Shown: positions 5,442 through 11,437 of the stretch, in pieces
How the letters are laid out: the number at the start of each line of letters is the position of its first letter
Numbering within the stretch: the first letter of the stretch is position 1
Virus genome (UHGV): UHGV-1941890
Length of the DNA: 16,642 bases
Direction: 5' to 3' (one strand)
Origin: a virus
Notes under the pieces: generated by a model
Told to the model about the DNA's origin: nothing
Seen by the model: only the letters and a program-made list of their open reading frames with translations
Database searches by the model: none
Position numbers and translations under genes: made by a program

Positions 5442-5654
5442 AAATTAAGCTCCGATATCGGGCCTTCTCTCATTCTGGTTGTTCGGGAAACGTTACTGGC
5501 AGGCCGGAGGTGTCTGTGGATTCGACTTTCTACGCGTAGAGCATCCATTCGGTTAATTTTTGTTTATTCTCGTCGGAAATGATGCCCAGCCGTAGCTGTG
5601 AGCCCCATAGGCGATATACAGACTGAAGAAACAACCAGGCAGACCCAGGAAAAA

Positions 5655-5690
5655 GAAAACCGCTAATCTGAACATTAGCGGTTTTTGCGT
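5655..5690. terminator. Bidirectional intrinsic terminator between the convergent G and U genes
   Basis: Hairpin ACCGCTAAT-ctgaac-ATTAGCGGT (5659-5682) followed by TTTTT on the + strand and preceded by an A-rich run (TTTCTTTTTC on the − strand). Confidence 0.6.
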
Positions 5691-5694
5691 TAAT

Positions 5695-6183
5695 TCAGAA
5701 CAGCCCTTTAACTGAACTGGTTGCGCTGTTAAGAGATGATGTCACCTTATCTTTGAAGCCAGACAGCATATCGCTGAACGATGAGGATTGCAGGCGCTCC
5801 CGCAAATCCTCATCACAGCGTTCAAGGGTCAGTGAAAATTCTATCTTTTTCGCCTTACCGTAGCGATCAAACTCGGAACGGGTCGTATTCGTTTCGGTCA
5901 GAACATACATGCCGTAAATCTGCCCGACGCCATCAATAAGAGGCCAGGGGCGTCCTGTATACGCCTGCGTGGTCAGCAGCGACAGCGACACTTCGCCACC
6001 TGTAATTTCAGGATAAAGCATGCCGGAAAGCACAATGCGATCATCACCTGCACCGATATACTGCCAGCTTGCTGAACGGTTAACGCGTTCATTTTTCACA
6101 TGCCGCCAGTTTTTGTTTTGCTGTAACTGCTGATGCGGCAGTGTGCGCAGCTCAAAAACAAACATGCCGTAGATCATCATCAT
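5695..6183 (-). CDS. U: Tail protein gpU
   Basis: − strand ORF MMMIYGMFVFELRTLP...YPEITGG...WPLIDG..G.IYGMYV...KIEFSL. GAGGAG is 8 nt upstream of the ATG at 6183 (the ATG at 6189 is only 2 nt from it), and the SD overlaps the T stop. Size matches P2 gpU (~160 aa). Confidence 0.75.
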   Translation of the reverse strand: MMMIYGMFVFELRTLPHQQLQQNKNWRHVKNERVNRSASWQYIGAGDDRIVLSGMLYPEITGGEVSLSLLTTQAYTGRPWPLIDGVGQIYGMYVLTETNTTRSEFDRYGKAKKIEFSLTLERCDEDLRERLQSSSFSDMLSGFKDKVTSSLNSATSSVKGLF

Positions 6184-6195
6184 GACCATGACTCC

Positions 6196-9256: not shown

Positions 9257-9528
9257 TTAATCATCACTTCATCCAGTCGTGGCGAGGTCACGCGAGGCAA
9301 CAGCGTAAACATGGTATCCGCTTTCAGATTCAGCACATCAGACAGCGACAGACCACGCAGGGATCCAGCCTGCTCAATAGCCCCGGTGATCTCCACATAC
9401 GTGATTTTTTCGCCACCACGCTCAATTGGTCGGGTCAGTTTTACGCCACGTTCGACAGCCATATCCTCACCTGCCGTCACATCATCCGCCACGGTGTTAT
9501 TCCGGGTTTCAGTATCGATGTCTTTCAT
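9154..9528 (-). CDS. E: Tail assembly chaperone gpE (0-frame product)
   Basis: 124-aa − strand ORF with AAGGAG 7 nt upstream of the ATG at 9528. It sits between the tube gene and the tape measure, as the chaperone does in P2-like tails. Confidence 0.75.
   Translation of the reverse strand: MKDIDTETRNNTVADDVTAGEDMAVERGVKLTRPIERGGEKITYVEITGAIEQAGSLRGLSLSDVLNLKADTMFTLLPRVTSPRLDEVMIKKMSSRDFIQLCAVAVNFMSEPDSGAKSVQETAA
9250..9261 (-). promoter_or_regulatory. Candidate −1 slippery site ATT-AAA-AAA-ATG (A7 run) for the E/E' frameshift
   Basis: − strand ATTAAAAAAATG (codons I-K-K-M of E, residues 90-93). The E' frame opens exactly here, straight after a −1-frame TAA at 9259-9257. Confidence 0.45.
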
Positions 9529-9583
9529 CAGTTGTCTCCTTTTCAGTCAGAGGCGACGCACTGCGCCGCCTGCATATTACTTA

Positions 9584-10096
9584 TCAGCCAAGCCCAAGCG
9601 CGGAACGGATATGGTTAGGCACAATGTCCTTGCCGTCCTTCCGGTAGATGTGGTTCAACAGGTCGATTTCCCACAGCGGGCGATCGTTAACGCTCAGCTT
9701 GTAGTAGGTGTTTTTGACAGCGTAAGTGTGTGATGTGGCTTCGCCCTGTTTGGCTTCCCCCATATCAATTTCCGTCACACGCCCGCGCATCTCGATTTCA
9801 TACAGATCGCTTTCTGCATCGGTGTAGTATTCACCCGCAAAACGCAGCAGCGTGCCGTCAATCGTGCCGCCATATTTAAGGAACAGCGCACGAACAGCTC
9901 CCCCCATGACAAAACTCGCATCAAGCGCGGAGTCGTCCAGACCGAGATCAATACTTACCGCCCCCATCATGCCACCCCCCCGGTAGCTGTCGGTTTTGCG
10001 CGTCAGTTTGGGCGGCGTGACGGATGTCACTTTACCCACTTCGTTTTCACCATCCACAAACAACGTAAAAAAGCGAAGATGTTTTGGTACAGCCAT
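9584..10096 (-). CDS. FII: Major tail tube protein gpFII
   Basis: 170-aa − strand ORF (MAVPKHLRFFTLFVDGENEVGKVTSVTPPKLTRKTDSYRGGGMMGAVSIDLG...), tube-like in size and sequence. Its ATG overlaps the FI stop (TGATG). Confidence 0.85.
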   Translation of the reverse strand: MAVPKHLRFFTLFVDGENEVGKVTSVTPPKLTRKTDSYRGGGMMGAVSIDLGLDDSALDASFVMGGAVRALFLKYGGTIDGTLLRFAGEYYTDAESDLYEIEMRGRVTEIDMGEAKQGEATSHTYAVKNTYYKLSVNDRPLWEIDLLNHIYRKDGKDIVPNHIRSALGLG

Positions 10097-11280
10097 CAGG
10101 CACCTCCCAGCACCGCAAATGCGGGACCAAAGAATTCATCAGTAAACGTCTGGTAAAGCTCCATGTCTTCCAGTGGCGGAACGGGCGTATATTTGTAGCG
10201 AATACGCACACGTCCCTGACGTAAATTCGTGGTGCCGTTATCCACCACGTCATACCAGCACTCCGCGCCAATCAGTTTCCCGGCAGTAACCAGCGAATCC
10301 AGTTTTGCCCTGATGGCACTGATAACATCCTTCACGTTCGCAGGCGTCAGTGGACTGTCGATGGTTTCAAATTGCGCTTCCGCAATTGAATCAGCCAGCA
10401 CCTGTGCGGCTCGGGTATACACCTCAAAGATGTAGGCGTTCGTTTCCGGTGTGCGGTTGCCCCAGAAGCGGAACCCGTTGCGACGAATAATGGTCGTGAT
10501 TTCTTTGTTATTGAGGCTGTTGGCATCACTGTCTTCGGCCTGCAACGACCAGAACACATGCCTGGACATTCCCAGCACATTTTTAACCGGAACGTTGGAC
10601 AGCGATTTGTGCCAGCCCTGCTCATGGTCAATGTACGCACGAAGGCCGCACGCATAAGCAGGCGCGGGGAACGTTTCGTTTTTTCCACTTTTCGGGTTGT
10701 AGGCGATGAAGTCCGGCCATAAGAGCATCACCTCACGTTCGTTGAATTTCTGGCGGTAGGTAATCGCCTCAGCCATCGTGTTACAACCATGACATGTGGC
10801 ATACACAAACGCGCGCAGTTTACCCGCAATCACGCACAGGGATTTCGTTACCGCCTCCGTGTCCAGCTCCGGCGCGGCCAGAATACGCGGACGGTATCCG
10901 ATGCTTTCATCCTGCTCTGCAACAAGCAGCGCATACATCCCCGTATAGCTGCCGTCATCCTCAGAACCACCGATAACCAGTTGATCCTGCGTCTTACCGT
11001 CTTCTTCTTTGTGTTCAGCCACGCGAACGACGATCACCTTTGTGCTCACCTGGTCTGCGATGGCCTTAAGCGCACGATAAAGCGTCCCCGTTGTCCCGCA
11101 TTTTCCCAGCACGTCATTGACGCGGGTCAGCAGTGTGGGCTTGTTCAGCGGGAACAGCTTCGCGTCCGCATCATCCGCCGTTGCCACGATACCGATAACG
11201 CTGGAATCAACATCGTTAATCGCTGTTACCAGGTCGGTATTTTCCGTAACACGGGCACCATGAAAACGAGTTTCACTCAT
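10096..11280 (-). CDS. FI: Contractile tail sheath protein gpFI
   Basis: 394-aa − strand ORF with sheath motifs (...QGWHKSLSNV..., ...IRRNGFRFWGNRT..., ...YKYTPVPPLE...). AAGGGG lies 9 nt upstream of the ATG. Confidence 0.85.
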   Translation of the reverse strand: MSETRFHGARVTENTDLVTAINDVDSSVIGIVATADDADAKLFPLNKPTLLTRVNDVLGKCGTTGTLYRALKAIADQVSTKVIVVRVAEHKEEDGKTQDQLVIGGSEDDGSYTGMYALLVAEQDESIGYRPRILAAPELDTEAVTKSLCVIAGKLRAFVYATCHGCNTMAEAITYRQKFNEREVMLLWPDFIAYNPKSGKNETFPAPAYACGLRAYIDHEQGWHKSLSNVPVKNVLGMSRHVFWSLQAEDSDANSLNNKEITTIIRRNGFRFWGNRTPETNAYIFEVYTRAAQVLADSIAEAQFETIDSPLTPANVKDVISAIRAKLDSLVTAGKLIGAECWYDVVDNGTTNLRQGRVRIRYKYTPVPPLEDMELYQTFTDEFFGPAFAVLGGA

Positions 11281-11437
11281 AGCTTCAGCCCCTTGTATCC
11301 GTTAAATGATTCGGCAACAATCATCACCCACCACGCGCGTAATCTCACCCCTGCGCCGTTCTCCCGCCACGGCGACAACAAAAAGCAGTCCCCCCCTCCG
11401 CACGCACATGCGACCATGCCGCACAGGGAGGGAACAG

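Follow-up and report, generated by a model that had tools for sequence, protein, structure and literature searches.

The opposite-facing block of tail genes FI to U in the 16,642-nucleotide window, the whole stretch of virus genome UHGV-1941890 that was analysed, is the fixed, standard gene order of the genera Xuanwuvirus, Reginaelenavirus and Senquatrovirus and of about 45 Enterobacterales prophage loci. Comparison of the 16.6-kb window with related genomes identifies it as part of a P88-like (Xuanwuvirus, Peduoviridae) prophage, and, judging from the same comparisons, the FI-U inversion is an old change common to one clade. We consider it very probable that this is an ordinary P88-like prophage with an ancestral inversion fixed in its clade, in which FI-U and D are most likely expressed late from one shared activator site. 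A sequence-only reading of the window had proposed either an inversion or a natural variant architecture; the variant architecture stands, as the order is standard in the closest relatives, and the block is inverted only in relation to P2. This is also the outcome that the reading itself had named as depriving the orientation of any special significance.

Pfam profiles matched all components of a P2-type contractile tail set (sheath, tube, E chaperone, tape measure, U, D and the H fibre), and the genes were placed using these matches, the open reading frames and the RefSeq annotation of the corresponding locus, 99.7% identical, in an E. coli chromosome. One flank of the FI-U block is formed by plus-strand genes W (369-719), J (723 to about 1620, interrupted by an N gap), I (1607-2134), the fibre gene H (2145-4880) and G (4884-5441, its frame broken by a 30-bp scar), the last two also identified by Pfam matches. 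The other flank is formed by D, which encodes the baseplate hub or late control D protein (11438-12547, plus strand; PF05954 and annotation). Between them, U, T, E/E', FII and FI all lie on the minus strand (5695-11280), just as the sequence-only reading had it. They encode the gpU tail protein (5695-6183 or 6189; PF06995, E=1e-38, and annotation), the gpT tape measure (6196-9003; PF10145, E=2e-56, and annotation), the chaperone E' (8990-9145, in the -1 frame relative to E and open to 8990 by frame analysis), the tail assembly chaperone E (9154-9528; a weak match to PF10109), the tail tube gpFII (9584-10096; PF04985, E=1e-45) and the tail sheath gpFI (10096-11280; PF04984, PF22671 and PF17482). 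RefSeq annotation places a separate “GpE family” CDS in the E/E' region, for which a candidate slippery heptamer, A_AAT_TTT (9211-9205, minus strand), is proposed on the precedent of P2 E/E'. The divergence of FI and D over a C-rich 157-bp spacer (11281-11437) had likewise been read correctly, 62 of its 157 plus-strand nucleotides being C. Downstream of D, an Ogr/Delta-type zinc-finger late activator is encoded at 16051-16311 on the plus strand (annotation; NCBIfam PRK09678 and PHROG 603 matches). A scan of the whole window against Rfam matched no families.

The longest open reading frame for D starts at 11306, and its first 44 codons form an unconserved extension across the spacer. The frame 11306-12547 was rejected as D, since the extension is neither conserved nor provided with a ribosome-binding site; the true start at 11438 is preceded by the ribosome-binding sequence GGGAGGG.

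The P2 record shows the co-linear FI-to-D order that the sequence-only reading had given for that phage. The P2 late operons, VWJIHG and FI-FII-E-E'-T-U-D, match the window in their protein families and in the internal order of the genes (D and FI are 48% and 45% identical to their P2 counterparts, respectively), and the E/E' frameshift arrangement, an Ogr-type activator and the geometry of the pF promoter are shared as well. However, whereas FI-U in P2 is co-directional with V-G and with D, which closes the F operon, in the window FI-U is reversed and D stands alone; a P2-type co-linear F operon, with FI to D co-directional and D distal, is not present.

The arrangement found in the window is widespread. 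Two complete E. coli chromosomes match positions 5200-12600 at 100% identity, and of 5426 complete E. coli genomes, 1349 contain at least 80% of this region at a single site. Any match was found in 1376 of these genomes, and 1355 of them have an unbroken junction of FI, spacer and D; P88-like prophages occur in roughly one complete E. coli genome out of four. Phages P88, phiSM, P884B11, PhiR44_2, SEN5 and Kp4871-3 have this order too. The identity of region 5200-12600 to phiSM, P884B11 and P88 is 93-95% over 99% of its length, and the range with PhiR44_2 and 500465-2 included is 92-96%, with 93-99% covered; PhiR44_2 is co-linear with the region in one piece. The annotated P88 and PhiR44_2 records match the window in gene order, (V W J I H G)+ (U T E FII FI)- D+ ogr+, and in strands, and tblastn mapping agrees. 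P88 and the other Xuanwuvirus phages (phiSM, P884B11, PhiR44_2, 500465-2) also share with the window the same 157-bp FI/D spacer and the presence of ogr and hok downstream. Production of virions has been documented for P88, phiSM and Serratia PP4 (PMC5285337, PMC6456863, PMC9826266).

A broader sample comprised 47 loci with D homologues (64-98% identity of D) from about 30 Enterobacterales species, and every locus that retained the neighbouring genes had the order (W J I H)+ (U T E FII FI)- D+ ogr+. The order is inverted too in SEN5 (Senquatrovirus) and Kp4871-3 (Reginaelenavirus), and the co-linear order is kept in P2, Wadgaonvirus 500465-1, AP3, phiCTX and RSY1, with D identity of at most 53%; the genera of Peduoviridae sampled for block orientation number only about ten. 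Because the relatives with D identity of at least 64% are inverted and those at or below 53% are co-linear, the inversion appears to be old and to mark one clade, and the orientation in the window is ordinary because it is the long-fixed normal order of P88-like prophages. The orientation as such is already known, since the standard maps published for P88-like phages show it. The literature searched on P88, phiSM, SEN4/5, Xuanwuvirus and the P2 hotspots gave no explicit account of the inversion, nor was a description of a clade-defining rearrangement and its regulatory consequence found in the searchable literature; a 2026 preprint mentions only that some P2-like elements have core genes ordered unlike the prototype.

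The contig itself is imperfectly assembled, with two scars, an N gap at 1387-1396 and an error-laden 30-bp duplicate at 5169-5198, and the sequence-only reading had considered a misassembly not excludable. However, neither scar coincides with a block junction, the block is not flanked by inverted repeats, and both junctions recur elsewhere: two complete chromosomes have them at 100% identity, and they are also present in over 1300 further complete genomes and in independently sequenced phages. Since both junctions recur in identical form in complete genomes, misassembly is excluded, and it is scarcely credible that the orientation of the block should be an assembly error or a recent inversion private to this isolate. 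Equally remote is the notion that the FI-U block is a programmed segment, flipped by a Gin/Hin-type invertase encoded beside U in relatives. Enzymes of this type do flip an adjoining fibre segment, and a DNA invertase gene lies directly beside U in P88 and in 7 of 44 related loci; however, this serine invertase serves the fibre segment and is missing in most members, this window included. Furthermore, a search for inverted repeats pairing 5442-5694 with 11281-11437 found none, only one orientation was seen across 1355 E. coli genomes and all related loci, and a flip would part FI from its own promoter. The neighbouring invertase was rejected both as the cause of the inversion and as a current flipper of the block, given the lack of repeats and of orientation polymorphism.

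The slot that follows G, here the G-U gap, had been described as holding only a terminator; the terminator was recovered, but the gap also contains an 84-bp remnant of a fibre module. This remnant (5530-5613, minus strand) is the 3' end of another tail-fibre assembly gene, inverted and resembling Mu U', and is an incomplete pseudogene in the annotation of E. coli strain M21816. G and the fragment, compared over 5200-5610, match U/U' of Mu, P1 and P7 at 91-94% identity, which relates the remnant to the Mu G segment and the P1 C segment inverted by Gin and Cin. A module of this type is kept whole, with its invertase, at the G-U position in relatives: in P88, about 2 kb of invertible fibre segment (the rest of tfa', an alternative fibre end and the DNA invertase) is found where the window has about 35 bp instead. 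Compared to the Mu and P1 modules, the window is cut down to one complete assembly gene and the 84-bp fragment and lacks an invertase, and therefore the fibre is fixed. On the strength of these similarities, the fragment is taken to be what is left of a lost invertible fibre segment and its invertase. The terminator scan identified a hairpin (5656-5685) whose 12-bp stem has an A-run on one side and a T-run on the other. It lies 10 nt beyond the U stop codon, at the meeting point of the G and U transcripts, and is predicted to be an intrinsic terminator that could work in both directions, in line with the convergence noticed earlier.

The 157-bp spacer between FI and D is proposed to be a bidirectional late promoter region controlling both genes. 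Among 41 distinct relatives aligned, the spacer is 145-157 bp long and contains conserved blocks. A single P2-type late-activator (Ogr) dyad, TCT-N12-ACAAC (11360-11379, centre 11368.5; GTTGT-N12-AGA on the other strand), is present in the window, and the corresponding motif T(G/C)T-N12-ACAAC, with a variable N12, is conserved in 39 of the 41 distinct spacers. Its distance is 78-88 nt to the FI ATG, compared to 82.5 nt in P2 pF, and 64-76 nt to the D ATG, and -10-like blocks are conserved to either side of it. The documented consensus of late-activator sites is TGT-N12-ACA (PMC3931495). An exact search for it in the spacer gave no matches, and the TCT variant emerged after the relatives had been aligned; the element TCT-N12-ACA (11360-11377) has one mismatch to the consensus, comparable to TGT-N12-CCA in P2 pO/pP and pF, and the FI/D dyads of many relatives are perfect. 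The motif is also found in the P/O spacer of the same prophage, and SEN5 has just three perfect TTGT-N12-ACAA dyads: one in the P/O spacer, one upstream of V and one in the FI/D spacer. The number of dyad motifs in the locus, three against 1.7 expected, is not significant alone; the argument for the dyad rests on its position and conservation.

Weak putative -10 elements were recognised on both sides of the dyad. Toward D, a putative extended -10 element, TGcGACCAT (11409-11417, plus strand), aligns with the RTGRAAnnAT block of the relatives, and register comparison with the mapped P2 late promoters predicts that D transcription starts near 11424, at a distance of 55 nt from the centre of the dyad. 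Toward FI, a putative -10 element, GATGAT (11320-11325, minus strand), aligns with GATTAT of the relatives, and the predicted start near 11313 is again 55 nt from the centre, in the register of P2 pF and pP. The two predicted starts would be 111 bp apart, the same distance, in the same register, as between the starts of P2 pP and pO, for both of which the P2 record annotates one activator site. As in P2 pP/pO, a single dyad with one imperfect half-site lies midway between divergent genes, the -10 is preceded by a GC-rich block, and the predicted starts to the left and right are some 55 nt away from the dyad centre. The P2 promoters, however, have been mapped experimentally and drive packaging and head genes, whereas those of FI/D are predicted from conservation and would drive tail genes.

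The conserved activator site and the promoter-like elements support the earlier suggestion that D would need a promoter of its own: most likely, D has an Ogr-dependent promoter that shares the activator site of FI. The half of the spacer next to FI is different in the E. coli group from that of the other genera, and part of it has therefore been replaced. The same group has TCT rather than TGT as the left half-site, a weak D-side -10 (GACCAT) and, found in this group only, the element CGCGCGTAATCT (11333-11344, plus strand), which resembles the -10 region of the P promoter. These features would fit a D gene driven otherwise, by a separate constitutive promoter, by a second unrecognised activator site or by low-level read-through. 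We nevertheless regard such control as unlikely, as a sigma-70 scan detected no consensus promoter inside 11281-11437, just one dyad is conserved across genera, with the dyad-to-D block at fixed spacing, and read-through from the fibre operon must pass 5.7 kb of antisense genes and the hairpin terminator.

We propose the following history, with breakpoints placed by comparison with co-linear relatives. In the ancestor of the clade, one inversion of about 5.75 kb would have reversed a segment that began a little upstream of the pF activator site and reached to the U/D boundary, so that the FI promoter was turned round together with FI, FII, E/E', T and U. In this way the Ogr-binding site of pF, which has dyad symmetry, would have been moved directly upstream of D, so that FI-U, read leftward, and D, read rightward, most likely share it and would be expressed late from one site, about 55 nt from each start, as in P2 pP/pO. 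The FI-U transcript would end at the hairpin adjoining the fibre genes, where the slot occupied in some relatives by the invertible fibre segment and its invertase would have been emptied here by loss. Once fixed, the inversion would have come to define a clade of P2-like phages across the Enterobacterales. On balance, we favour the further proposal that it created a second bidirectional late promoter, pF/pD, made D a separately tunable late unit of one gene and opened the fibre-U and D-ogr junctions as cargo slots.

The weight of these observations beyond correct annotation is small. The P2 order is not universal in Peduoviridae, which calls for caution from annotators and in the use of synteny-based prophage tools, and by the inversion, Xuanwuvirus, Reginaelenavirus, Senquatrovirus and related prophages can be told cleanly from the co-linear genera. 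As a second locus, the FI/D spacer also lends itself to a simple natural test of whether one Ogr-bound dyad can activate RNA polymerase in both directions.

D is now a one-gene unit ahead of ogr, from which it is parted in the window prophage by a 3.5-kb low-GC cargo insertion that P88 lacks. The cargo open reading frame (12796-15915) had no matches in Pfam, PADLOC, NCBIfam, PHROGs, PDB sequences or PDB folds. In E. coli, the integration site of the prophage adjoins ihfA-pheT.

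From the ORF listing, Pfam matches and the RefSeq annotation of the E. coli M21816 chromosome, which is 99.7% identical to the window, genes W (369-719), J (723 to about 1620), I (1607-2134), H (2145-4880) and G (4884-5441) were mapped to the plus strand, followed on the minus strand by U (5695-6189), T (6196-9003), E' (8990-9145), E (9154-9528), FII (9584-10096) and FI (10096-11280). Beyond the 157-bp FI/D spacer (11281-11437), D (11438-12547), a low-GC ORF of 1039 aa (12796-15915), ogr (16051-16311) and hok (from 16502) are again on the plus strand, and in the M21816 annotation ihfA-pheT adjoins the end of the element. 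The sequence-only reading was thus right in opposing FI, FII, E/E', T and U to D and the fibre genes, and in describing the FI/D spacer as C-rich (62 of 157 bases). Within E, a canonical slippery heptamer, A_AAT_TTT, lies in the correct register at 9205-9211 (minus strand); the -1 frame, which codes for a GpE-family domain, has no stop between this point and 8990, and the heptamer is the likely E/E' frameshift site.

The same reading had left room for a misassembly, pointing to the N gap in the contig. The contig does carry two scars: a gap of 10 Ns in J (1387-1396, within a scar span of 1383-1396), with a loss of 5 nt compared to M21816, and a 30-bp insertion (5169-5198) that the M21816 chromosome, otherwise identical, lacks. 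This insertion repeats the 30 nt after it with A-to-G errors and splits G into two ORFs; an artefact of a read end or contig join is its most likely origin. Both scars are away from the block junctions, which are found in more than 1300 complete genomes. Two complete E. coli chromosomes match positions 5200-12600 at 100% identity, and in 1349 of 5426 complete E. coli genomes at least 80% of this region is covered, in a single place and in the same order. Of the 1376 genomes with any match to a 557-bp probe comprising the FI end, the spacer and the D start, 1355 have it intact, including O157:H7, O26, O111 and ST131 strains. An assembly artefact or a private event is therefore ruled out as the source of the orientation. 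No inverted repeats linking the two ends of the block were found.

The alternative that had been offered, a natural variant architecture, agrees with the closest relatives, in which this orientation is standard. The nearest phages are phiSM, P884B11, P88, PhiR44_2 and 500465-2 (92-96% identity), P88 and P884B11 being classified as Xuanwuvirus, Peduoviridae. In the annotated P88 and PhiR44_2 records the genes are arranged exactly as in the window, and the element belongs to this P88-like group. With the D protein as query against a set holding a single genome for each bacterial species, 47 loci from about 30 Enterobacterales species were obtained, among them members of Salmonella, Edwardsiella, Serratia, Enterobacter, Erwinia, Pantoea, Kosakonia, Klebsiella, Brenneria, Pectobacterium, Symbiopectobacterium and Rouxiella. 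The order (W J I H)+ (U T E FII FI)- D+ ogr+ is present at all loci with neighbours retained, down to 64% D identity, and also in Kp4871-3 (Reginaelenavirus, D 70%) and SEN5 (Senquatrovirus, D 63%). Members of the clade are functional, since P88, phiSM and Serratia PP4 give particles or plaques (PMC5285337, PMC6456863, PMC9826266). FI to D are co-linear in five phages with lower D identity, namely Wadgaonvirus 500465-1 (53%), P2 and AP3 (both 48%), and phiCTX and RSY1 (both 43%), which makes co-linearity the ancestral state. The inversion is thus an old character common to one clade, and the window element lacks the defining feature of the co-linear P2 F operon. The arrangement itself is already known, because all deposited genomes of three ICTV genera show it; no discussion of it or of its regulatory consequence was found in the searchable literature, and only the idea of an activator site shared by the FI promoter, pF, and a proposed D promoter, pD, is mildly new.

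This idea derives from the FI/D spacer. A TGT-N12-ACA element is described for Ogr in P2 late promoters in a passage of PMC3931495 citing Christie and Calendar, and the P2 record annotates a single site (3057-3087) for both divergent promoters pP and pO, whose mapped starts (3016 and 3127) are 111 bp apart. Among 41 distinct FI/D spacers of 145-157 bp, 39 share a single conserved dyad, T(G/C)T-N12-ACAACAA with variable N12. Its distance is 78-88 nt to the ATG of FI and 64-76 nt to that of D, and conserved elements flank it on both sides, a CGCGCGC-RTGRAAnnAT block toward D and one of GATTAT type toward FI. In the window the aligned dyad is TCT-N12-ACAAC (11360-11379), and the motif recurs between P and O of this prophage. 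Perfect TTGT-N12-ACAA dyads occur only three times in the 33.5 kb of SEN5 (P/O spacer, just upstream of V, and FI/D spacer), and two of the three in Kp4871-3 are in the P/O and FI/D spacers. When set in register with the mapped P2 promoters, candidate -10 elements toward D (TGcGACCAT, 11409-11417, plus strand) and toward FI (GATGAT, 11325-11320, minus strand) place the half-sites at -64 to -62 and -49 to -47 on both sides, as in pO and pP, and the predicted FI and D starts are 111 bp apart. The FI side also keeps the geometry of P2 pF, with 82.5 nt from site centre to FI ATG in P2 versus 78-88 nt here. The expectation that D would need its own promoter fits the conserved dyad and the candidate -10 elements; D is probably expressed from a site shared with FI, with predicted start sites and a putative dependence on Ogr.

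Several minor features of the spacer were noted. Spacers of the E. coli group alone contain CGCGCGTAATCT (11333-11344, plus strand), which is directed toward D from a position upstream of the dyad and is similar to the combined GC block and -10 (CGCGCGGGTAATCT) of the P promoter of the same phage; in the FI-proximal half the E. coli group differs from all other genera. The longest D ORF begins 44 codons upstream, crossing the spacer (11306-11437, plus strand), and small "hypothetical" ORFs are annotated there in the P88, PhiR44_2 and SEN5 records; these are probably spurious calls over the promoter region.

In the most economical history, the inverted segment would have had one end shortly before the pF site and the other at the U/D boundary, setting the palindromic Ogr site beside D, which would then have required just a weak -10 and a ribosome-binding site. 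The Wadgaonvirus order is invertase, 142 bp, then FI; as this scenario predicts, 35 bp separate the invertase and U stops in P88. The invertase, which adjoins U in 7 of 44 related loci, acts on the fibre segment; no sign of the tail block being flipped by it was seen in the loci examined.

The slot between G and U had been thought to hold only a terminator. A hairpin, the terminator candidate, is present (5656-5685), but so is a fibre-module remnant: in 5442-5645, 84 bp from the 3' end of a Mu U'-like assembly gene (5530-5613, minus strand) remain, and about 35 bp stand where P88 has about 2 kb with an alternative fibre end, a DNA invertase and the part of the inverted assembly gene that is missing here. 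Given this P88 segment and the 91-94% identity of 5200-5610 to the fibre-assembly genes of Mu, P1, P7 and D108 (the U/U' region in the first three), the gap is a decayed invertible tail-fibre module followed by a predicted terminator, and with the invertase missing the fibre specificity of the prophage is fixed. GC content falls to 44-47% at the H end and G (4000-5610), which, together with the Mu, P1, P7 and D108 identity, indicates a horizontal swap of the fibre tip/chaperone module between unrelated phages.

The 1039-aa ORF (plus strand, 33% GC) occupies the D-ogr gap, which measures merely 40-55 bp in nearly all relatives; of 5426 E. coli genomes, only 5 have the ORF. Its product contains a helical membrane region at the N-terminal end. 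Searches of Pfam, PADLOC, NCBIfam, PHROGs and PDB sequences gave no match to the protein, and its structural model, of fair confidence (pLDDT 81), gave no meaningful PDB fold match. About 186 homologues of 1040-1069 aa exist in Enterobacterales, often mislabelled "MFS transporter", and a distant homologue on large plasmids has AAA-ATPase, RES and PIN/MazE genes as neighbours; the ORF is a candidate accessory or defence gene. It is preceded by 250 bp of AT-rich sequence containing two exact TGT-N12-ACA copies (12574-12591 and 12670-12687, plus strand); these copies could be due to chance (3 in the whole window, 4.4 expected) or hint at late cargo expression. Unrelated cargo occupies the gap in two other P88-like prophage loci, a 386-aa protein without family match in L005 (11229-12389, minus strand) and a 340-aa protein with a weak RiboL-PSP HEPN match below the Pfam cut-off in L046 (568-1590, minus strand), which makes the D-ogr gap an occasional cargo slot in this lineage.
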